From contig BTVY01000025.1 of the NCBI GenBank assembly GCA_045863335.1, positions 947 to 64,946 of the forward strand: a stretch of DNA of 64,000 bases, given 5' to 3'. Each line of letters starts with the position of its first letter. The first letter of the stretch is position 1. Both the position numbers and the translations under genes were made by a program. The stretch comes from Candidatus Hydrogenedentota bacterium (GTDB taxonomy: Bacteria; Hydrogenedentota; Hydrogenedentia; Hydrogenedentales; SLHB01). Below the pieces are notes generated by a model that had not been told where the DNA came from, did not search any database, and worked only from the letters and a program-made list of their open reading frames with translations. Below, one piece after another: positions 3,577 through 55,345 of this stretch.

Positions 3577-3870
3577 GGGTCTCCTCTTTTACGGAATGCA
3601 CCGGTACCGGTGGCTTGGATCGTGGATATCGTTAGACCGTCCGTGATGGACGCAAGACTTATTTTACACACAGAAACATCGAGAGAAAAGGACGTCGGGC
3701 AGTCGGGGCTGGATGAGCATGGATCGGGCATTCAGCCCTTGTGTTTCCGGTATCACAGTTTCCTGGGGCGTTGCCCCAGGCTGGTATGGGGCGCGCCGTT
3801 GGCGCTTAAGAGCATTTCTCACGTGGTGGTCGCGTTTAGAAGAAAGCGGAACGTCTGCGCTACGTACCGA

Positions 3871-4167
3871 TCAATTCCGGGAGCGCTGGTAGTATTTGCC
3901 TTCGTGGAAGGACGGGAAGTAAATGGGAATGAGGGGGTGGTCGATCTTCTCGCCGCTGGGGTCGGGTTCGAGGTTCTCTTCGGCGACGTAGTGTTCCCAG
4001 CCGCGGTGACGGAGGACGTGGTACCAGGGTTGGTCGCGGCGCGGTTGGGTCTGGTTACGTTCGTACCATTCGTCGGGCGCTTCGCATTGGTCGTCGATAC
4101 CGATGATCACGCCGCGGTAGCCGTAGCGGCGGTGGTGGATGACGTCGCCGATTTCGAACTTGGCCAT
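3871..4167 (-). CDS. hspQ: HspQ/YccV-like hemimethylated-DNA-binding domain protein
   Basis: MAKFEIGDVIHHRRYGYRGVIIGID...PWYHVL... matches the HspQ/YccV-like domain pattern (FxIGQxVxHxxxGYxGVV...PWYHV). Size is 98 aa. Confidence 0.65.
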   Translation of the reverse strand: MAKFEIGDVIHHRRYGYRGVIIGIDDQCEAPDEWYERNQTQPRRDQPWYHVLRHRGWEHYVAEENLEPDPSGEKIDHPLIPIYFPSFHEGKYYQRSRN

Positions 4168-6573: not shown

Positions 6574-8382
6574 GTGAACACCTTTTCCCAATGGCTACGG
6601 AATGTGAATTGCTTCGTTGTTGGCGCGATGGGATTGTGCGTTGCGGTGTCCGCGACGGACTACTACGTGGCGACGACCGGGTCGGACGAGGCGACGGGCT
6701 CACAAGATGCGCCGTTCCGCACGGTCCAGCGCGCAGCCGCAGCCATGCAGGCCGGTGACACGTGCATCGTGCGCGAAGGCGTATACCGGGAGACGGTTCG
6801 CCCCGCGAATTCGGGCAGTGCAGACCAGCCTATTACCTTTCGCGCGGCGGAAGGGGAGTCTGTGGTCGTGAGCGGGGCCGAGCCCATCGAAGGTCGGTCG
6901 GCGCAGGACGGCCGTTGGACAGCGCAGGCGGACTTTGATTTCGAGCAGCTCTTCGTCGACGGTGTCATGATGCCGCCGGCGCGATGGCCGAGTATGGACG
7001 CCGGTGCGATCTGGCCTACCTTTGCGGAGGCGGACGACGGCAGCGACGCGACCGGTATCGTGGACGCGGATTTGCCCGAGGTCGACCTGGCGGGTGCGCG
7101 CATCCACGTATTGCCCGGAAGGCGGTGGGTGTCGTGGATGCGGCCGGTTGACGGCATGGAGTCGCGCGACACGGCGCGCAAGGTGTTGTTCGAGGGGTCC
7201 TGGAGCCAGGAACCCGCGTATCGCATCGAGAAGGGCACGCAGTATTACCTCTTCGGAGCGCCGTCGCTACTGGATGCGCCGGGTGAATGGTGCGTGGATG
7301 GGACGACGGTGACACTGATTCCGCCGGCGGATGCTGCGCCGGACGGCCTACGGATTGAGGCCAGGAAGCGGGAGTTCGCTTTCGATCTCCGCGAGCGAAG
7401 CCACATCGTCGTTGAAGGGATTCGGATCTTCGCGGCGACAATTCACTTGGGCGATGCGCAAGGGTGCACGATTGAGAACTGCCATCTGCGGTATCCCTCC
7501 CACTTCACGAATCCGGATGGCTGGACGATTCCCGACAGCGGCATCGTTGTGAGTGGGAAGGACAATATCATTCGGTCATGTTCCGTCCAGTACAGCGCGG
7601 GTAACGGCATTACGTTGGACGGTGAGAACAACACGGTGACAAATTGTCTCGTGCGCTACGTCGATTATATGGCGACGGATTGCGGCGCGATTTTCGCGCG
7701 GGGCCGGGGCAACATCATCGAGCGGAATACCCTTTGCGAGACGGGACGCAGCGTGTTATTGCACCGGGCACTGAAGGCGGGCCGCATCGAGTACAACGAC
7801 ATCTTTCATGCGGGAATCCTGACGACGGATTTGGGGAGCACGTACTGCTTCCAGACGGACGGCGAAGGGACGGTTATCGCGTACAACTGGGTGCACGACA
7901 ACCTCGCCGATCATGTAGGCGTTGGCATCTACATCGATAACGGCTCCAAGAATTTCCTAATCCATCACAACGTGTCGTGGAACAATCCGGACAGCGGCAT
8001 CCGGCTCAACACGCCGTCGCACGACAATCTCGTGTACAACAACACGGTCCTAGACAATGGCAACAGCCTGAGCTACTGGGGTCCCGATGGCGAAGACCGG
8101 CAGCCGGGCTGCCGCGCAATGAATAACATCTTCACGAACAAGGTGGAACCCGGCGATGGGATTGAGATGAGCCACAACTTTGAGGGTGGCGATCCTGGCA
8201 TGGAGTCAATTGACGAACACGACTTTTGGTTGGCCGAAGGATCTCCCTGTATCGACGCCGGAACTCGAATCGAGGGAATTACGGACGGGTACATCGGTCT
8301 AGCGCCAGATATCGGCGCCTATGAGTTCGGCGGAACTCCCTGGAAACCCGGTCACGACTGGGGAGAGCCGCCGGAGTTTTGA
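6574..8382 (+). CDS. secreted right-handed parallel beta-helix (pectate-lyase fold) repeat protein
   Basis: GTG start with an AGGA/GAGG ribosome-binding site. It has a signal peptide and the motif DYYVATTGSDEATGSQDAPFRTVQRA..AGDTCIVREGVYRE typical of pectate-lyase-fold proteins. Repeated NxxxxNN/GNGI beta-helix rungs follow. Confidence 0.6.
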   Translation: MNTFSQWLRNVNCFVVGAMGLCVAVSATDYYVATTGSDEATGSQDAPFRTVQRAAAAMQAGDTCIVREGVYRETVRPANSGSADQPITFRAAEGESVVVSGAEPIEGRSAQDGRWTAQADFDFEQLFVDGVMMPPARWPSMDAGAIWPTFAEADDGSDATGIVDADLPEVDLAGARIHVLPGRRWVSWMRPVDGMESRDTARKVLFEGSWSQEPAYRIEKGTQYYLFGAPSLLDAPGEWCVDGTTVTLIPPADAAPDGLRIEARKREFAFDLRERSHIVVEGIRIFAATIHLGDAQGCTIENCHLRYPSHFTNPDGWTIPDSGIVVSGKDNIIRSCSVQYSAGNGITLDGENNTVTNCLVRYVDYMATDCGAIFARGRGNIIERNTLCETGRSVLLHRALKAGRIEYNDIFHAGILTTDLGSTYCFQTDGEGTVIAYNWVHDNLADHVGVGIYIDNGSKNFLIHHNVSWNNPDSGIRLNTPSHDNLVYNNTVLDNGNSLSYWGPDGEDRQPGCRAMNNIFTNKVEPGDGIEMSHNFEGGDPGMESIDEHDFWLAEGSPCIDAGTRIEGITDGYIGLAPDIGAYEFGGTPWKPGHDWGEPPEF

Positions 8383-47644: not shown

Positions 47645-49039
47645 ATGTCGCAGGAATTCAAACTCATCAGACCGAACTTTGTGCCGCCGCTGGACGAGGG
47701 GTATCGTCCGGCCGTGCTGGCGAACCGCGCGTTTCGCGCCGAAGTCGAGGCGTCCGGGGAGGGGGTTCCCTTGGTGCTGGGGCTGGAGCGGGCGGACGGG
47801 TCCGTATCGCGTTACGAGACGCAGGTATTTCCAGAGGGCCACGCACGGGCGCAAGCGAACCTGTTCTACGTGGAACGGCTGGTCAAGTTCCTGTTGTGGC
47901 AGCGCGGCGGCTGGAAGGTCTACGTGGGTGGGCCGCGCAGCATCGGCGAACACATCGCCACGGTATACGCCATGGGCGGCGCGCGGGAGTTCGACTTCAA
48001 GTTTATGGGTGAGGACGTGTACGAACACACGTTCACCGTGGTTCCATGCGACGTGTCGGACGTCCCGGCGGAAAACGAAACAACGCAGGCGCTTGGGCGT
48101 CATCTGGACGGATGCCGCATCGGGTTTGACCTGGGCGCATCGGATCGCAAGGTGTCGGCCGTCGTGAACGGCGAGGCAGTGTACAGCGAAGAGGTTGTGT
48201 GGGAGCCGCGCAAGCAGACGGATCCCGCGTACCACTACAACGGGATCATGACCGCGTTGAAAACGGCTGCGTCCAAGATGGACCGGGTCGATGCCATCGG
48301 CGGCAGCTCCGCGGGCGTGTACATCAACAACCGGCCCATGATCGCATCGCTGTTCCGGGGAATCCCGAAGGATCGCTTCGACGAGGTCCACAATCTGTTC
48401 CTGCGCATCCGCGACGAGATGGGTGTGCCGCTGGAAATCGTGAATGACGGCGAGGTCACCGCGCTCGCGGGGTCCATGTCGCTGGAAGACAACGGCGTGC
48501 TGGGGATCGCACTCGGGTCGAGCGAGGCGGGCGGCTATGTGACTATGGACGGCAACATCACGGGCTGGCTGAACGAATTGGCCTTCGCGCCGGTGGACTA
48601 CAGTCCGGACGCGCCGAAGGACGAATGGTCCGGCGATGCGGGTGTGGGCGCGTTGTACTTCTCGCAGCAGTGCGTGTTCCGGTTGGCACCCAAGGCGGGA
48701 ATCGAACTGCCGAAGGACGTGACCGACGCGGAAAAGCTCAAGGCCGTGCAGGAGAAGCTGGAAGCAGGCCACGAAGGCGCGACGGACATCTGGCGGAGCA
48801 TGGGCATCTACATGGGGTATACCATCGCCCACTACGCGGACTTTTACGAACTCAAACACGTGCTGGTGTTGGGACGTTGCACGTCCGGCAAAGGCGGCGA
48901 CTTGATCGTGAACGGCGCGAATGAAGTGTTGAATGCCGAGTTCCCCGAACTGGCGAAACGGATTGAAGTACAATTGCCGGACGAAAAGGCGCGCCGGGTC
49001 GGGCAGTCGATCGCAGCGGCAAGTCTGCCGGCGATATAG
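47645..49039 (+). CDS. ROK/sugar-kinase-like (ASKHA fold) protein with ~150-aa N-terminal extension (tentative)
   Basis: GFDLGASDRKVSAVVNGE (phosphate-1-like), DAIGGSSAGVY and EIVNDGEVTALAG (ROK/glucokinase-like blocks). The N-terminal domain is unassigned. Confidence 0.45.
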   Translation: MSQEFKLIRPNFVPPLDEGYRPAVLANRAFRAEVEASGEGVPLVLGLERADGSVSRYETQVFPEGHARAQANLFYVERLVKFLLWQRGGWKVYVGGPRSIGEHIATVYAMGGAREFDFKFMGEDVYEHTFTVVPCDVSDVPAENETTQALGRHLDGCRIGFDLGASDRKVSAVVNGEAVYSEEVVWEPRKQTDPAYHYNGIMTALKTAASKMDRVDAIGGSSAGVYINNRPMIASLFRGIPKDRFDEVHNLFLRIRDEMGVPLEIVNDGEVTALAGSMSLEDNGVLGIALGSSEAGGYVTMDGNITGWLNELAFAPVDYSPDAPKDEWSGDAGVGALYFSQQCVFRLAPKAGIELPKDVTDAEKLKAVQEKLEAGHEGATDIWRSMGIYMGYTIAHYADFYELKHVLVLGRCTSGKGGDLIVNGANEVLNAEFPELAKRIEVQLPDEKARRVGQSIAAASLPAI

Positions 49040-49079
49040 GAAAGAACACGGACTTGCACGGACGGGCACGGACGAAGAG
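49040..49079. repeat. 10-bp-periodic CACGGAC array (3 units) starting right after the stop codon
   Basis: GAAAGAACACGGACTTGCACGGACGGGCACGGACGAAGAG. Confidence 0.8.
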
Positions 49080-49126
49080 AAGAAATAGCAACCGCCTCGA
49101 TCGAACTGGCGGATAGGAGAGGACGA

Positions 49127-49975
49127 ATGAAGTTTACGTTGGAAGGCGCACAGGTATTTGTGCCCGATCATTTGCCGGTTGAGGAGGCGCTCAGCCGGAC
49201 CACCCATATCGCCATCGGCGCGCATCAGGACGACCTGGAGATCATGGCGTACGACGGCATCATCAAGTGCTTTCAGCAGGAAGACAAGTGGTACTGCGGC
49301 GTCGTGGTGACGGACGGGAGCGGCTCGCCGCGCGACGATGTGTACAAGGATTACACCGACGACGAAATGCGGGTCGTGCGGGTGAAGGAGCAATTCAAGG
49401 CGGCGGTGGTCGGTGAGTACTCCGCGCAAGTCATGCTCGATTACCCGAGCAAAGCGGTGAAGGATGGCTCTGACAAGCGGCCGGTCGAAGACATCGTGAA
49501 AATCCTTCGCGCGACGCGACCGGAGGTGGTGTATACGCACAACCTCACCGACAAGCACGACACGCATATCGGCGTGACCTTGAAAGTCATCGAAGCGATC
49601 CGGAGTCTGCCCGCCCCGGAACGTCCGCAGGCCTTGTATGGTTGCGAAGTGTGGCGGGATCTGGACTGGATGGTGGACACGGACAAAGTAGCCTTTGACT
49701 GTTCAGCCCACGAAAACTTGCAGGCGGCGCTGTTGGGCGTCTTCGACTCGCAGATCGCAGGCGGCAAGCGGTACGACCTGGCAACCCTGGGCCGGCGCCG
49801 CGCCCATGCCACGTACCACGCGTCGCACGCCACGGACGTAACCACGGGGATCAGTTTTGCCATGGACCTAACCCCGCTCATTGACGATGCGGAGCGGGAT
49901 GTGGCGGACTTCGCGCAGGAACTGATTCGGCGTTTCGCGAGCGACGTGGCGGTGCGCATCGGCAAGCTTCGCTAA
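49127..49975 (+). CDS. PIG-L/LmbE family N-acetylglucosaminyl deacetylase
   Basis: IAIGAHQDDLEIMAYDG (HxDD motif) plus the His/Asp zinc ligands VYTHNLTDKHDTH. AGGAGAGGA ribosome-binding site. Confidence 0.7.
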   Translation: MKFTLEGAQVFVPDHLPVEEALSRTTHIAIGAHQDDLEIMAYDGIIKCFQQEDKWYCGVVVTDGSGSPRDDVYKDYTDDEMRVVRVKEQFKAAVVGEYSAQVMLDYPSKAVKDGSDKRPVEDIVKILRATRPEVVYTHNLTDKHDTHIGVTLKVIEAIRSLPAPERPQALYGCEVWRDLDWMVDTDKVAFDCSAHENLQAALLGVFDSQIAGGKRYDLATLGRRRAHATYHASHATDVTTGISFAMDLTPLIDDAERDVADFAQELIRRFASDVAVRIGKLR

Positions 49976-50049
49976 ACCAGAGGGCAAGAAATGTGGACTC
50001 GCACGACCGTGGCTTGCGAACGACCTTTATGTTGAGCGAGTTTCACGGT

Positions 50050-50223
50050 TCGTGCGCGAAGGCGATTAAGATGGGTTCCCGCTTTCGCGGGAATGACGGC
50101 GTGGGGGGGTTGCAGAATGCCTCGCTCTATCCGTCATTCCCGCGAAGGCGGGAATCCAGTGCAACGTCCGGCACTTCCGGGGATCCCCGAAAGCGACGTC
50201 TGATCAAACAATGGCGTATCGCC
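50050..50223 (+). ncRNA. candidate cobalamin (AdoCbl) riboswitch-like leader upstream of the btuF-like gene (tentative)
   Basis: GGGAATCCAGTGCAACGTCCGGCAC (50149-50173) resembles the E. coli btuB leader core GGGAAUCCAGUGCGAAUCUGGAGC, as far as I recall it. The leader also contains a 22-bp near-perfect inverted repeat (50078-50099 / 50131-50152). I cannot verify the full consensus or the B12 box. Confidence 0.3.
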
Positions 50224-51099
50224 GTGCTGACACTTGCGTTCGCAATCGGCGTCCTCTCTTCCACAGGTTGCTCGCCTGAGGCGGCAGTTGAAAATCCGGC
50301 CAGGCACGGCATCATCTCCATGTCGCCAAATATCACGGAGACCCTCTTCGCCCTAGGGCAGGGCGATCGCATCATCGCGGTGACTGCGTATTGCGATTAT
50401 CCGCCGGAAGTGGAATCGCTGCCGGATGTGGGCGGATACATCGATCCCAATCTCGAAAGAATCACAATGCTCGATCCCGGGCTGATCATCCTTCCGGGCA
50501 AGCATGAGAAGGTTGCCGCACTCGCGAAGCAGAACGGATTCCCCGTGCTCCACGCGCATATGGATAGTCTCGCCACGATTCACGACGGCATTACCCGGAT
50601 CGGAGAAGCGCTGGAGTGTCCGGACGAAGCAACGGCGCTGTGGAATCAGATCCAAAGCGAGTTGGATGCGATACGCGCGGCAGTCGAAGGACAGCCGAGG
50701 CCGAAGGTCCTGTTGATCAATACGCGGTCGAACCATGACCTGAACAACCTCTTCACGGTGGGCAGCAAATCGTTTCTCTCCGAGATGCTGGACGTGGCCG
50801 GCGGCGAGAATCTCTTTGGCGATGAAACGGTGGACTATTTCGAGGCCTCCAAGGAATCGGTGGTCGTGCGTGCACCCGACGTAATCATCGAGTGTCATGC
50901 GGGCGAAGGGCTCTCGCAAGAGGAGTTGCAACAGTATCGCGACGACTGGAACGCGCTGCCGTCGTTGCCTGCTGTCGAGTCGGAGCGTATCTACTTGTTT
51001 GAGGAGTCCTACGCGTTGCGGCCCGGACCGCGCATAGCATTGATCGCCGCGCAGTTCGCGCGCTGGTTGCATCCCGACATTGAGATCCCCGCGCCATGA
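50224..51099 (+). CDS. ABC transporter periplasmic substrate-binding lipoprotein, BtuF/FecB (class III) type
   Basis: Lipobox VLSSTGC; IISMSPNITETLFALGQGDRIIAVTAYCDYPPEV; LDPGLIIL. I take the GTG at 50224. The ORF track starts at 49993, which would run through the structured leader. Confidence 0.65.
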   Translation: MLTLAFAIGVLSSTGCSPEAAVENPARHGIISMSPNITETLFALGQGDRIIAVTAYCDYPPEVESLPDVGGYIDPNLERITMLDPGLIILPGKHEKVAALAKQNGFPVLHAHMDSLATIHDGITRIGEALECPDEATALWNQIQSELDAIRAAVEGQPRPKVLLINTRSNHDLNNLFTVGSKSFLSEMLDVAGGENLFGDETVDYFEASKESVVVRAPDVIIECHAGEGLSQEELQQYRDDWNALPSLPAVESERIYLFEESYALRPGPRIALIAAQFARWLHPDIEIPAP

Positions 51100-51899
51100 C
51101 GCGCGTGTTGCGCTCGGAGAATGTGACCTTCGCCTATGAACCGGGAACGGACGTGATCTCCGGCGTCGGCGCGTCCGTGGAGAGCGGGACGATCACGGGG
51201 CTCGTCGGGCCGAATGGTTCAGGGAAGAGCACGTTGCTGCGCGTTTTGGCGGGATTGCTGCGGCCGCGATCGGGAAGCATTCTCATCGACGAGCGGCCGT
51301 TGAGCGTCGTATCAAACCGCGAACGGGCGCGCATCATGGGGTTTCTGCCGCAAGCGGTGAATCCGGTGTTCTCGCTGAACGTGTTCGAGGTGGTATGCCT
51401 GGGACGCTATCCGCATCTTGGCGCGTTGGGCGCATTGCTGCCCCACGACCGGACTGTGGCGCACCGCTGTTTGCGCGATACCGGCACCGAGGATCTGCAC
51501 AACCGCAATTTCATGTCCCTGTCCGGCGGTGAACGTCAGCGGGTGTTGCTGGCGAGCGTGCTGGCGCAGGAGCCGGACCTGTTGTTGCTGGACGAACCGA
51601 CCTCGTCGCTGGACATCCATCATCAGATCGAGATTTTCGCGCTGCTGCGGCGGCTGGCGTCGGAAGGCTACGGCATCGGCGTCGTCACGCACGACCTTAA
51701 TCTTGCAGCGCGATTCTGCGATCGATTGTATCTGTTGTCGCACTTGTCGACCGGCCTCATCGCTTCCGGTGAACCGGGTGCGGTGCTGACCGAGGAACTA
51801 CTGTCGAAGGCCTACGACGCGCCCATTCGCGTGTGCCGCCATCCCCTGACGGGCGCGCCGCTGATCACGGCGGAGGAACCTGCGGAGTCAGCGCCATGA
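51096..51899 (+). CDS. ABC transporter ATP-binding protein (FecE/BtuD family)
   Basis: Walker A GPNGSGKST, signature LSGGERQR, Walker B LLLLDEPT. ATGA overlap with the upstream gene. Confidence 0.85.
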   Translation: MTRVLRSENVTFAYEPGTDVISGVGASVESGTITGLVGPNGSGKSTLLRVLAGLLRPRSGSILIDERPLSVVSNRERARIMGFLPQAVNPVFSLNVFEVVCLGRYPHLGALGALLPHDRTVAHRCLRDTGTEDLHNRNFMSLSGGERQRVLLASVLAQEPDLLLLDEPTSSLDIHHQIEIFALLRRLASEGYGIGVVTHDLNLAARFCDRLYLLSHLSTGLIASGEPGAVLTEELLSKAYDAPIRVCRHPLTGAPLITAEEPAESAP

Positions 51900-52930
51900 C
51901 GAGAAGTACACGCAGATGGCTGACCGTCGCGGTGGCGCTGGGCTCCGTCGTGCTCATGACGGCCAGTCTGCTCATCGGCACGGAAACCCTGAGCGTCGGG
52001 CGCATTGTTGCGGAATGGCGCGCGGGAGAAGCGATCAACGACTCGCCCGCGCTGAGCATCCTGTTCAACCAACGCATGCCGCGCACGCTGGTGGCGCTGA
52101 TCGTCGGGTGCGGTCTGACCATTGCGGGATGTTCCTTTCAGGCCTTGTTGCGGAATCCACTCGCGACGCCGTACACCTTGGGCATTGACAGCTTCGGGGC
52201 CTTCGGGGCCTACGCGGCAACGATCTTCGGATCGGCAGCGGGCTGGACGGCATTTGAGATCGCGGGCTTCTCCCATGTGCAGGCCTCGGCCTTCGCCTTC
52301 GCCACCTTCGACGTGCTGCTGATTTACGGCATGGCGACGCGCAAGACCCGCATGGCGCCGTCGGTGTTGTTGCTCGCGGGCGTGACGCTGGGTCTGCTCG
52401 CGGGGTCCGGCATTCTGTTCCTGCGCTACCTCGCCCGTCCGGAGCAATTGGTCAACATGGACCGCTGGCTCATGGGCGGCGTCGACGTGATCGGCTACGA
52501 GCCCGTGCTGACGCTGCTCATCGGCGTGGTGCCGTGCTCGATCGTTTTGCTGGCGCAGGCGCCGAAGTTCGACCAGCTCGGGTTTGGCGAGGAGATGGCG
52601 GCCGGCCGCGGCGTGAACGTGCGGCGTCTGCAACTGACGACGTTCCTCGTGTGCTCGCTCATGACCGGGATCATCGTGTCCAAAGTGGGCCCCATCGGGT
52701 TCGTCGGGCTCATCGTCCCCCACGCGGTACGGTCGATCACCGGGTCGCGCCATCGCGTGCTCATGCCCGTGAGTATGATCGCGGGCGGGGCGTTTCTCTG
52801 CGCCTGCGATATCATCGCGCGGAAGTTTATGACGGGAGAGACGCCGATAGGGATTATCACGTCGCTGATTGGGGCACCGTTCTTTTTGTATTTGTTGACG
52901 AGAAGGCGGTTTACGGATTGGGAGACGTAG
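51896..52930 (+). CDS. FecCD-family ABC permease (BtuC-like)
   Basis: The ATGA overlap makes the 51896 start likely. Ten transmembrane helices of FecCD type, with GAPFFLYLL at the C-terminus. Confidence 0.85.
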   Translation: MTRSTRRWLTVAVALGSVVLMTASLLIGTETLSVGRIVAEWRAGEAINDSPALSILFNQRMPRTLVALIVGCGLTIAGCSFQALLRNPLATPYTLGIDSFGAFGAYAATIFGSAAGWTAFEIAGFSHVQASAFAFATFDVLLIYGMATRKTRMAPSVLLLAGVTLGLLAGSGILFLRYLARPEQLVNMDRWLMGGVDVIGYEPVLTLLIGVVPCSIVLLAQAPKFDQLGFGEEMAAGRGVNVRRLQLTTFLVCSLMTGIIVSKVGPIGFVGLIVPHAVRSITGSRHRVLMPVSMIAGGAFLCACDIIARKFMTGETPIGIITSLIGAPFFLYLLTRRRFTDWET

Positions 52931-52934
52931 GGAA

Positions 52935-53024
52935 TACGGACCTACACGGACCTACACGGACCTACACGGACCTACACGGGCAGACACGGACAGACACGGG
53001 CAGACACGGGCAGACACGGTCGGT
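52935..53024. repeat. 10-bp tandem array, 9 units (ACGGACCTAC x4, ACGGRCAGAC x4, and one more)
   Basis: Begins 5 nt after the permease stop. The periodicity is strictly 10 bp. Confidence 0.9.
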
Positions 53025-53077
53025 GATCTCGCGAGGAACCGCGTCGCCGTGTGCGATGGACGGCGAATTGAATTCCC

Positions 53078-53776
53078 CTATTCTTTCCGCTTCTTCCGTC
53101 GCCGTTCGGTGCGGATGCGGTAGAGGCGTTCTGAGAAGCCGCCTTCTTCGGTGAAGGTCTCGCCCTGGGAGTCGACCTGGCGTTTGAGGAGGTAGCTGGC
53201 GAGGTTGATGAGGGATAGGGCGGCGTTCGCGGCGAGGATCGCGGAGGGCGGGGTGGAAGAACACGGACGTACATGGACCGACGCGGACGCACACGGACGT
53301 GGGGACTCCACTTGATCCGATTTGTTCTTTCCGTCCGTGTTGGTCTGTGTGGGTCCGTGTAGGTCCGTGCGGTGGAACTTCAGTTCGTCGGCCACCCAGG
53401 CCTGCACCTCCTGGAGTGTGGCACAGCGCCGCTTCTTGAAGCGCTGCAACGCCGGATGATCCGGCGGGTACTCGGGTAGACCCCGCTGCCGGAGGAAATC
53501 TTCGTAATCATCGTGCAGTTCTTCCAAACTGCCACGCGCAATGTTGGTCAGAAACATCTCTGACTTTTTCGATGTGGCGGAATCGATGCTGCCTTCGGCG
53601 ATGTTTTGCACGCCAGAGCGCGCGGCTTGGACCATTTGATCGTGGGTGCGACCTCGTTTCTCAAGGTACAACTCGCAGAAACGAAATGTTACGTCGTAGA
53701 TCAACCGGGCGACTTGGAAGGACTTGAGGCTCCGGTAACCTCCATGGTTGGGGATGAGTTTCTCGTCGTCGGACAT
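53078..53776 (-). CDS. four-helix-bundle protein (TIGR02436-like, 23S-rRNA-IVS-protein family) carrying a ~75-aa in-frame insertion made of the CACGGAC repeat
   Basis: The N-terminal ~100 aa (LKSFQVARLIYDVTFRF...ARGSLEELHDDYEDFL) and the C-terminal ~50 aa (ILAANAALSLINLASYLLKRQ) look like a normal four-helix-bundle protein. The middle (TDLHGPTQTNTDGKN...SASVHVRPCS) is encoded by the inverted decamer arrays at 53248-53363. Confidence 0.5.
   Translation of the reverse strand: MSDDEKLIPNHGGYRSLKSFQVARLIYDVTFRFCELYLEKRGRTHDQMVQAARSGVQNIAEGSIDSATSKKSEMFLTNIARGSLEELHDDYEDFLRQRGLPEYPPDHPALQRFKKRRCATLQEVQAWVADELKFHRTDLHGPTQTNTDGKNKSDQVESPRPCASASVHVRPCSSTPPSAILAANAALSLINLASYLLKRQVDSQGETFTEEGGFSERLYRIRTERRRKKRKE
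53248..53363. repeat. inverted pair of CACGGAC decamer arrays (4 direct + 4 inverted units, 28-bp spacer)
   Basis: Left arm 53253-53293 reads ACACGGACGT ACATGGACCG ACGCGGACGC ACACGGACGT. The right arm 53323-53363 is its approximate reverse complement. Confidence 0.85.
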
Positions 53777-54043
53777 GACAATCCCTCTATGGCTATGACA
53801 AAGCCAAATCGCGAAAATCAGATTAAATTCATCCGGCGTGCTGAATCAATCAGCGCCACTCCAATCCTACACTCACATTGATTTCCCTTCTCCTCCCCCG
53901 TACCATATGGGGCTATTCTGTTTGCCGGGGCTCTCTCGTGCGCATACTTCTTGTCCCTGTGATGAAACGCGTTTCGGGTATTGGGGATTAGAAGTATTGC
54001 AGCGAAGAGCCGGGGCGCGGTTGGACCGCAACGTGGAGCATTC

Positions 54044-55345
54044 ATGAGACGCAATATCGTACATATGGGCGCGGGGAGTCTGAGCTACGAGATCCGGGAG
54101 ATCGTGGCGGTGGCCCGGCAGATCCGCGCCATGGGCATGGAAATCACCTGGGAGAACATCGGCGATCCGGTCCAGAAGGGCGAGAAGGTCGCGCCGTGGA
54201 TTCGCGAGATCGTGCATGACCTCGTAGAGCAGCACGATTCCTGGGCGTACTGCGATTCGGCGGGCGTGCCGGCGACGCGGGAGTTTCTGGCGTCCAACGT
54301 GAATGTGCGCAAAGGCGGAGTCCAGATTAGTTCCGACGACATCATGTTCTTCAACGGACTCGGCGACGCGGTGAGCAAGGTGTACGGTTTCCTGCGGCGC
54401 GAGGCGCGTGTGTTGGGGCCTTCCCCCGCGTACAGCACGCACTCGTCGGCGGAGGCGGCACACTCCGGCTACAACCATGTCACGTACAACCTCGATCCGT
54501 ACAATGGCTGGTTGCCGGACGTCGAGGACATCCGCAACAAGGTAAAGTACAACGACTCCATCGCGGGCATCCTGATTCTGTCGCCGGACAATCCGACGGG
54601 CGCGGTGTATCCTCGTGAGATGCTCGAGGAAATCGCTGGGATCGCGCGCGAGTACAAGCTGTTCATGATCACGGACGAGATCTACGTCCACATCGTATAC
54701 AACGGTAGTCCCCGGATGCATATGAGCGAGTGGATTGGCGACGTGCCGGCGCTCGCGATGCGCGGCATCAGCAAGGAATACCCCTGGCCGGGTTCGCGCT
54801 GCGGCTGGCTGGAAGTGTTGAACAAGGACAAGGACGAGAACTTCGCGACCTATGTGAACAGCCTGCTCGCGGCGAAACGGTTGGAGGTTTCGTCCACCAC
54901 GATGCCGCAGATGTCCATTCCGCGCGTTATGGGCGATGCGCGGTATCTCGATCACTTGAGCACGCGCGAAGCACTGTTTGATGGGCGCGCCGACGAGGCC
55001 ATGAAGGCGTTCGAAGGCTGCGACGCGGTTATCACGAACAAGCCGGGCGGCGCGTTCTATTTTACGGTAATGTTCAAGGACGGTGTGCTGAACCAACAGC
55101 AGACGCTTCCCATCGACAACCCGAAGATCAAGGCGCGCATCGAGGAACTGGTCAAGAACGTGGCGCCGGACAAGCGGTTCGTCTACTACCTCATGGGCGC
55201 GACGGGAATCGTGGTCGTGCCGTTGACGGGGTTCCAGTGCGACCACGACGGGTTCCGCATGACGCTGCTGGAGTCGGACGACACGAAGCGCGCCTGGATC
55301 TTGAAAACCCTGCGCGACGCCATCGACACGTACATCGCTTCTTGA
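54044..55345 (+). CDS. class I/II PLP-dependent aminotransferase (alanine-aminotransferase-like)
   Basis: LSYEIREIV near the N-terminus, the PLP-lysine context SKEYPWPGSRCGW and overall length of ~430 aa. The start could alternatively be the ATG at 54065. Confidence 0.7.
   Translation: MRRNIVHMGAGSLSYEIREIVAVARQIRAMGMEITWENIGDPVQKGEKVAPWIREIVHDLVEQHDSWAYCDSAGVPATREFLASNVNVRKGGVQISSDDIMFFNGLGDAVSKVYGFLRREARVLGPSPAYSTHSSAEAAHSGYNHVTYNLDPYNGWLPDVEDIRNKVKYNDSIAGILILSPDNPTGAVYPREMLEEIAGIAREYKLFMITDEIYVHIVYNGSPRMHMSEWIGDVPALAMRGISKEYPWPGSRCGWLEVLNKDKDENFATYVNSLLAAKRLEVSSTTMPQMSIPRVMGDARYLDHLSTREALFDGRADEAMKAFEGCDAVITNKPGGAFYFTVMFKDGVLNQQQTLPIDNPKIKARIEELVKNVAPDKRFVYYLMGATGIVVVPLTGFQCDHDGFRMTLLESDDTKRAWILKTLRDAIDTYIAS

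Follow-up and report, generated by a model that had tools for sequence, protein, structure and literature searches.

A stretch of 64,000 nucleotides (nt) from the Candidatus Hydrogenedentota bacterium contig BTVY01000025.1 (referred to here as the window) carries a gene of the "four helix bundle suffix" family at positions 53078–53776 on the reverse strand. Its product of 232 amino acids (aa) consists of an N-terminal TIGR02436 part and a C-terminal TIGR04258 suffix, and between the two the reading frame runs through a cassette of inverted, short-unit repeat arrays. Comparison with homologues reveals that this cassette is a defining, ancestral nucleic-acid element of the gene family. From the distribution of the arrays we tentatively propose, at a probability of roughly 0.45, that the basic helix-bundle protein itself recognizes them as its binding sites, in an arrangement resembling the repetitive extragenic palindromic (REP) sequences and their REP-associated tyrosine transposases (RAYT).

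The cassette opens on the mRNA strand with a sense array of four units, CACGGACCTA CACGGACCCA CACAGACCAA CACGGAC (53333–53369, reverse strand), which encodes aa 136–148 (RTDLHGPTQTNTD). It is followed on the same strand by a loop of about 33 nt (53299–53332; aa 149–160) that varies in length and sequence among homologues, and by an antisense array of four units, GTCCGTGTGC GTCCGCGTCG GTCCATGTAC GTCCGTG (53262–53298), which encodes aa 160–172 (RPCASASVHVRPC). Each arm consists of four units of a 10-nt repeat with the core CACGGAC, and the reading frame stays open throughout. When treated as an inverted repeat, the arms (53262–53299 and 53332–53369) are 38 nt each and 82% complementary, with a loop of 32 nt. 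The DNA fold of the cassette has an energy of -36.5 kcal/mol, compared with -23.6 +/- 2.8 for shuffled sequences (z = -4.67, with 0 of 200 shuffles as good), and the RNA fold reaches -51.3 kcal/mol. The in-frame inverted CACGGAC cassette, able to form an imperfect hairpin, that had been described from the sequence alone is therefore borne out. The same sequence-only reading assigned all of the central ~75 aa to a cassette of 116 bp. This length can encode only about 39 residues (aa 138–177). Its placement of the cassette in the loop between helices 3 and 4 agrees with the AlphaFold2 model, where the cassette falls in a disordered segment with a predicted local distance difference test score (pLDDT) of about 50. 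A permissive Rfam search of the region from 48.5 to 54.5 kb returned only spurious miRNA-hairpin matches; mir-3149 on the cassette scored 30.5 bits against a gathering score of 100.

To place the cassette within its family, homologues were searched among 5.8 billion proteins. More than 8000 matches were obtained, and the best 120 were used for alignment. These are 211–274 aa long (most of them 215–235), are 57–83% identical to the query and cover its whole length, and their named sources include Hydrogenedentota, Latescibacteria, Verrucomicrobia, Desulfobulbaceae and Sumerlaeota. The cassette is missing from 0 of the 120 aligned proteins. Their linker has the consensus TDxHGxTRTxTD...SVxVxxxPCxSVP, exactly the peptide obtained when (CACGGACnnn)n and then (nnnGTCCGTG)n are read through all three frames.

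The DNA of the homologues was examined in a Verrucomicrobia metagenome-assembled genome (MAG), a Desulfobulbaceae MAG, two syntenic Hydrogenedentota contigs and 80 metagenome loci. Arrays are seen in the DNA of members of the Verrucomicrobia, Desulfobulbaceae, WOR-3, Lentisphaeria and Thermoanaerobaculia. All close homologues, which are 60–83% identical and come from at least five phyla, carry a sense array, (CACGGACnnn)x3-6, and then the antisense array, both placed as in the query. A set of 77 distinct full-length coding sequences was examined, and every closer relative in it has the two arrays at nt ~400–540. A more distant subfamily (48–54% identity) uses units of 9 nt, with the core RTGGAC and then GTCCAY, again at the same position. 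Counted by unit type, the arrays occupy this position in 42 of 42 ten-mer-type and 33 of 33 nine-mer-type coding sequences. A third variant, CAGGGAC/GTCCCTG, is found both internally and upstream in locus L155. The internal sense array is missing in L141, L155 and L200, and these three loci carry a sense array in the 5' leader. The cassette is in frame in 87 of the 87 loci examined.

Because the arrays are family-wide and all in frame, the interpretation of the cassette as a lineage-specific insertion fails. The sequence-only reading had favored a miniature inverted-repeat transposable element (MITE) or other repeat merely tolerated in one lineage, and close homologues of several phyla with inverted arrays at the same position contradict this. 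The part of that proposal that sees a repeat element is retained, given the free palindromic copies and the two in-frame copies in unrelated genes described below. The middle region is ancestral and conserved, although it is conserved as nucleic acid and not as a protein domain, the form in which an ancestral origin had been envisaged. A search of clusters at 50% identity was unusable for estimating family diversity, since its count of representatives is raised by fragments and by frameshifted entries. Four database proteins (P0263, P0259, P0277 and P0270) change frame in or near the arrays and then read through the downstream arrays; these may be assembly errors.

The selection acting on the cassette is visible in its codons. 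In the ten-mer-type genes, the glycine of the HG dipeptide is encoded by GGA in 23 of 26 cases (88%) in the linker, compared with 60 of 387 (16%) in the rest of the gene (p 1e-14). The same preference for the codon that spells the core is seen for Thr in TD (ACG, 68% in the linker versus 32% elsewhere in the gene), Arg in RT (CGG, 77% versus 39%), Ser in SV (TCC, 71% versus 29%), Pro in PC (CCG, 94% versus 65%) and Arg in VR (CGT, 50% versus 13%). Over the whole alignment, the pairwise identity at four-fold degenerate sites in the protein domains is 0.33–0.46, which corresponds to saturation. In the sense and antisense arms it is 0.57 and 0.74 for the ten-mer genes, and 0.81 and 0.67 for the nine-mer genes. 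Core bases at codon position 3 are about as conserved as those at positions 1 or 2. The cores do not vary at synonymous sites, whereas drift is seen in the 3-nt spacers. The four-fold sites follow the DNA core and not codon usage, and the constraint is therefore on the nucleic acid and not on the peptide. Across the insert the frame is kept and the synonymous sites of the arms are held to the DNA motif. The second suggestion of the sequence-only reading, a repeat recruited as a low-complexity linker, fits the protein product but leaves the nucleotide constraint and the arrays outside the open reading frame (ORF) unexplained.

Within the genes the two arms are 71–73% complementary, which is approximately the share of core bases per unit (7 of 10 nt in the ten-mer). 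The core bases pair with each other, and the spacers are mostly unpaired. The conserved feature is the cores and not a continuous stem.

Arrays also occur next to the genes, and they are of the same type as those inside. In 247 kb of sequence flanking 36 ten-mer genes there are 14 ten-mer arrays and 0 nine-mer arrays, and in 120 kb flanking 27 nine-mer genes there are 0 ten-mer and 13 nine-mer arrays. The type of the flanking array is that of the adjoining gene in 27 of 27 cases. The sense orientation predominates among the flanking arrays, most of which end 2–60 nt ahead of the ATG. The window shows the mirror arrangement, with an antisense array after the stop codon.

This external array (52935–53021, reverse strand) contains nine decamer units. 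It lies 56 nt past the stop of the helix-bundle gene and 5 nt past the stop of the convergent FecCD gene, and over a stretch of 40 nt its complementarity to the internal sense array is 88%. A second, free-standing array of three decamer units (49047–49073, forward strand) is situated in an intergenic region, 8 nt past the stop of the ORF at 47645–49039 and 54 nt ahead of the ORF at 49127–49975.

Three relatives, L202, L003 and L204, were compared with the window. The window, L202 and L003 share orthologous copies of the helix-bundle gene, whose DNA identity of 77–88% is like that of the flanks. All three have the same 4+4 internal units, and the internal sense array is nearly invariant, spacers included, while the surrounding codons vary; L003 has about 125 extra nt in the loop between the internal arrays. 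In L204 the gene order is the same and AlaT is 90% identical, but a blastn comparison shows that the segment from 52932 to 53895, comprising the external array, the gene and about 119 nt upstream of its ATG, is absent. These 964 nt of the window are replaced by 109 nt in L204, and the segment is present in L202 and L003. The gap between FecCD and AlaT in L204 is 263 nt (3738–4000, corresponding to 52931–54043 in the window) and contains neither a helix-bundle gene nor decamer arrays. The outer end of the external array coincides exactly with one edge of the difference. Together, the gene and its arrays behave as a compact cassette, all parts of which are gained or lost at once. The free array 4 kb away (49047–49073), upstream of the PIG-L gene, is likewise present in the window and in L202 (orthologous, 4 units, different spacers) and absent from L204.

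Two further observations were made on these relatives. In L202, the closest relative for which DNA could be compared, the array 3' of the gene is split 4+8 (6755–6791 and 8087–8155) by a segment of 1.3 kb containing a 403-aa ORF (6810–8021, reverse strand). An unrelated 151-aa ORF occupies this spot in L003, and the window is empty there, so that this is a variable cargo site bounded by arrays. The 403-aa ORF has no match in Pfam, NCBIfam or PADLOC, and the 151-aa ORF has none in PADLOC. The C-terminal half of the gene (53078–53250 in the window) shows a DNA identity of ~93–95% among the three Hydrogenedentota orthologues, compared with ~77–80% for the N-terminal half and 83–88% for the neighboring genes, which may reflect gene conversion. 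A nucleotide-level element in this half of the gene was considered and rejected, as the pattern is absent across the family.

To find arrays independent of the gene, one genome per species (596 Gb in total) was scanned for three exact cores at 10-nt spacing. At least 117 loci were found, compared with ~0.3 expected by chance according to our own arithmetic (21 fixed bases, two strands). The matches listed come from about a dozen phyla, and their sources include Acidobacteriota, Lentisphaerota, Nitrospirota, Hydrogenedentota, Aminicenantes, Verrucomicrobiota, Planctomycetota, Sumerlaeota, WOR-3, Spirochaetota, Myxococcota, a Prevotella and others. A few actinobacterial matches are perfect microsatellites and probably unrelated. 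Only about 6 of the 117 loci listed are in or beside a suffix-family gene.

A typical free locus consists of a sense array, a loop (median 29 nt) and an antisense array, and the order sense-then-antisense prevails at 47:1 among the matches listed. The inverted arrays are 30–40 nt long and 12–120 nt apart. Most have three or four units with the consensus A-CACGGAC-N-R, and the free arrays often occur in a single orientation, with up to nine units. Complementarity of the spacers in the free hairpins is 42%, against 33% in the control, and since the spacers are barely complementary, a continuous stem is not what is maintained. A simple terminator or cruciform was dropped as an explanation on the same figures. 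Copies within one MAG (L021, L030, L034 and L055) have the core in common but neither spacers nor loops, so they are not copy-paste copies. Target-site duplications were not evident by eye in the flanks of the free arrays, which were not searched systematically. Nine-mer TGGAC arrays occur free-standing as well, in the Hydrogenedentota relatives L202 (1790–1812 and 2722–2762), L203 (3127–3149 and 4055–4077) and L204 (5398–5429).

Many free arrays start 2–15 nt past a stop codon, as do the two external arrays of the window with respect to FecCD and the ORF at 47645–49039. Three to four CACGGAC decamers are also present in frame within two nonribosomal peptide synthetase (NRPS) genes, L024 (1452–1478) and L114 (7010–7046), both checked with Pfam; one set is at the start of an adenylation domain and the other in an inter-domain linker. 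ORF calling was too noisy in GC-rich contigs to divide all loci into genic and intergenic, and only the clear cases, those 2–15 nt after stops and the two NRPS genes, were kept. No Rfam family matches the decamer arrays. The literature library searched has no description of them, of TIGR04258 or of "four helix bundle suffix", and none of its papers that mention PF05635/TIGR02436 deals with this array feature.

The protein encoded around the cassette is identical to a hypothetical protein already in the databases, from a Candidatus Hydrogenedentota MAG. NCBIfam identifies TIGR02436 (four helix bundle protein) at aa 18–89 with 31.4 bits (cut-off 24) and TIGR04258 (4helix_suffix) at aa 181–227 with 68.6 bits (cut-off 40), covering profile positions 3–49 of 49. 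The Pfam family PF05635 (23S_rRNA_IVP) reaches 31.8 bits, slightly below its gathering score of 33.8, and a precomputed PF05635 match is present on homologues of the protein. Homologues are labeled "four helix bundle suffix protein" by JGI.

The AlphaFold2 model, built on the 120 homologues, has a mean pLDDT of 84. It consists of helices at residues 18–37, 43–62, 70–97, 108–116, 121–138, 177–211 and 214–231, and residues 139–176 have low confidence and are modeled as disordered. The segment between helix 3 and the cassette (residues 98–138) is a helix pair that is conserved as protein in all homologues. The best Foldseek matches in the Protein Data Bank (PDB) are 2gsc (probability 1.00, TM-target 0.66) and 2rld (probability 0.97), both PF05635 proteins. 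The sole match at the sequence level is again 2gsc (E = 0.5), aligned across the ARSxxxNIAEG signature. The residues HGGYR, RTxDQ and NIAEGS are invariant. The NCBIfam score and the fold matches confirm the ORF as a four-helix-bundle protein of the TIGR02436 type, as predicted from the sequence. Proteins of the family are basic, with a median isoelectric point of 9.5, a median net charge of +9 and a basic tail. No family in PADLOC-DB matches the 232-aa protein. IMG/VR holds no relative of it, and there is therefore no sign of a phage origin.

On this basis, the cores would act in cis as recognition sites, set about one helical turn apart in groups of three or four, for a factor that binds nucleic acid in a sequence-specific manner. 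The most economical candidate for the binder is the encoded protein, being basic, having the fold of Avd and the proteins of 23S rRNA intervening sequences (IVS), and being probably oligomeric. We favor it because it is basic and has the Avd fold, because the subfamilies track the unit type, and because there is no other candidate in sight. Such a protein would bind its own gene, as duplex DNA, extruded hairpin DNA or RNA, with autoregulation through the upstream and internal sites, and would also bind the scattered arrays, so that the free arrays would be non-autonomous satellites of the gene. The genome-wide link between gene and free arrays is based on the co-variation in the flanks and on one comparison of an occupied with an empty site. 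In a broader form, which we regard as doubtful, the arrays would be a cross-phylum, tandem-core palindromic element whose master gene encodes, in place of a transposase or recombinase, the four-helix-bundle protein, which would recognize and perhaps propagate or organize them.

Several observations weigh against recognition by the encoded protein. It is a helix-bundle protein without a recognized DNA-reading motif. Nine-mer arrays are found beside ten-mer arrays in some genomes of other phyla (L008, L045 and L063), and L204 has a nine-mer array but no suffix gene seen in its 9 kb; as both unit types occur in one genome, the types are not strictly genome-specific. The window excepted, about 184 kb of ten-mer-gene flank contains no array at a distance above 300 nt, and satellites may thus be few or absent in many carriers. 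The contrast between presence and absence of the gene comes from one genome, L204, and cannot be polarized into insertion or deletion. The match between flanking and internal arrays could also have arisen by local duplication or gene conversion, and not by co-evolution with the protein.

The main rival is an RNA switch: pairing of the internal antisense array with either the internal or the leader sense array would control translation initiation or form a site for RNase III. The upstream arrays suit such a mechanism, since they are nearly always in the sense orientation and end 2–25 nt ahead of the ATG, and the three loci without an internal sense array (L141, L155 and L200) have one in the leader. 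The RNA hairpin is stable at the energy given above, and in the IVS that carry S23p genes RNase III cuts a stem of 28 bp that encloses the element (PMC4990558). We nevertheless consider a switch unlikely. The arms are complementary only to the extent that the cores pair, with most spacers left out, and no Rfam family matches. Mismatches on the sense strand are more often A:C (159) than G:U (95), the opposite of what is expected for a helix of the sense RNA, although this is weak evidence because A-rich spacers may explain it. Free arrays are often in one orientation only, with as many as nine units, and the orientation bias of 47:1 is not needed for a hairpin. A passive selfish repeat, like a Rickettsia palindromic element (RPE) or a MITE, that landed once in the loop of an ancestral gene and persists as a harmless linker refreshed by an active repeat family, with no relation to the protein, is less probable again. 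It would account for the intergenic arrays in many genomes and for those in frame within the two NRPS genes, the linker is disordered and variable in length, and RPEs are a precedent for in-frame palindromic inserts (PMC10969869). However, a neutral insert should decay, and here the cores are held although the proteins have diverged by 35–50% and synonymous sites are saturated. Moreover, the arrays are present at one position in every member examined (77 coding sequences), the unit type switches together within and outside the ORF, and free copies in one genome have no common spacers and no target-site duplications seen by eye.

Two explanations that concern the product of the gene are far less probable. 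A unit of 10 nt is not divisible by 3, and slippage at a contingency locus would shift the frame and toggle the C-terminal suffix; the database proteins P0263 and P0259 do change frame in or beside the arrays. Adjacent units differ in their spacers, though, which makes them poor substrates for slippage, and orthologues of ~83% DNA identity keep both the number of units and the spacers. All 87 loci are in frame, the frameshifted entries may be assembly errors, and the units of the nine-mer subfamily cannot shift the frame at all. We therefore consider a contingency locus very improbable. Selection on the linker peptide (Thr/Asp/His/Gly-rich, then Ser/Val/Pro/Cys-rich), with the DNA repeat as a by-product, has in its favor that the peptide motif is recognizable family-wide, but it is largely refuted and the least credible of the explanations. 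Synonymous positions follow the DNA core, the two halves are mutual reverse complements, which no peptide function needs, and the same units are present outside ORFs.

The genes next to the family members were inspected at about 70 loci. The only recurrent neighborhood is the type I restriction-modification (R-M) system (HsdS 9, HsdM 5 and HsdR 5), and type I R-M operons house about one fifth of the loci. The other neighbors belong to 117 different families, and among the 121 neighboring ORFs no transposase or integrase recurs and no reverse-transcriptase family is present. In at least 12 loci (L130, L137, L152, L154, L156, L169, L172, L178, L181, L189, L190 and L199) the stop codon of the gene overlaps the ATG of an unrelated downstream gene in the sequence ATGA. 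The genes overlapped include those for PBP1, a sulfatase, a GT4 glycosyltransferase, HsdM, HsdR and an M16 peptidase. From this overlap it follows that the gene sits in operons without breaking them, and the overlap points to translational coupling, or else to insertion immediately before start codons. The window holds one gene of the suffix family, its neighbors are the FecCD and AlaT genes, and no rRNA match was found in the region 48500–54500. Elsewhere in the window, a near-perfect inverted repeat of 87 nt with a 28-bp stem (50072–50158) lies between a PIG-L-like gene and a periplasmic-binding-protein gene. Neither of the syntenic relatives L204 and L202 has anything that corresponds to the 327-nt stretch containing this repeat (49976–50302). 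The repeat resembles a further inserted palindromic element, and its sequence bears no relation to that of the decamers.

PF05635/TIGR02436 proteins are very common and are found in "selfish" places: the IVS of 23S rRNA, type I R-M operons and diversity-generating retroelements (DGRs). We know of no function for those outside DGRs. Recognition of the arrays by the suffix-family protein is a concrete hypothesis for such a function. If true, it would be the first for the large non-DGR part of the Avd/23S-IVS-protein superfamily and would provide a link to why these genes occupy hairpin-bounded IVS and type I R-M operons. In the cassette itself, third codon bases clearly show strong selection on a coding sequence at the level of the nucleic acid, and annotators should be aware that a "low-complexity linker" can be a cis-element. 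The finding also adds a repeat family that is apparently unlisted in catalogues of genomes and RNA motifs.

The system is a variation on the theme of a repeat element plus an associated gene, of which REP/RAYT is the closest model. REPs are short imperfect palindromes situated mostly past stop codons. The arrays resemble them in that they too are found mostly just after stops, that a single associated gene is flanked by the repeats, and that the repeat type co-varies with the clade of the gene. In contrast, the protein here is a four-helix bundle and RAYT is a transposase of the HUH/Y1 type (IS200/IS605-like). The repeats are tandem cores of 7–8 nt with free spacers where a REP is a single palindrome of 20–40 nt; one pair of arrays is in frame within the ORF; and the core is common across phyla. 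Avd, the four-helix-bundle accessory protein of DGRs, is basic and binds nucleic acid as a pentamer. It shares the fold family and the basic character with the suffix proteins, and action on nucleic acid as a small oligomer, like that of Avd, is predicted here. No reverse transcriptase or pair of template and variable repeats is present near the ~70 loci, however, and Avd lacks the suffix domain and the internal arrays. The placement of sites upstream of the start and again ~400–500 bp into the ORF recalls looping of the lac O1/O2 type, a function that is hypothetical here, and the sites differ from those of lac in being tandem arrays in opposite orientations.

MITEs also have terminal inverted repeats and a small size, but here the copies compared within one MAG are not near-identical, the neighbors include no transposase, and there is no lineage-specificity. 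Simple-sequence contingency loci differ in that the units here are non-identical and their number is the same in the window, L202 and L003. RPEs, the nearest analogue as regards in-frame palindromes, are lineage-specific inserts of ~150 bp that are read in frame in protein genes and have a conserved peptide (PMC10969869). As with RPEs, a palindromic repeat is read in frame in a surface or disordered segment and is also found in unrelated genes (the NRPS genes L024 and L114). Unlike them, it is present in all members of a widespread family, is conserved at synonymous sites and consists of tandem units of 9–10 nt. By protein family the nearest relatives are the IVS of 23S rRNA, which lie in helix 25 or 45 of the 23S rRNA gene. 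Those of Coxiella and Leptospira carry an ORF of the S23p/PF05635 type (PMC4990558), so that the protein belongs to the same superfamily, and in both cases a small helix-bundle gene with inverted repeats forms a compact, horizontally moving element. The cassette described here differs from the IVS in its location outside rRNA, in repeats that are short-unit arrays with one pair within the ORF, and in a protein with two extra helices and a C-terminal suffix.

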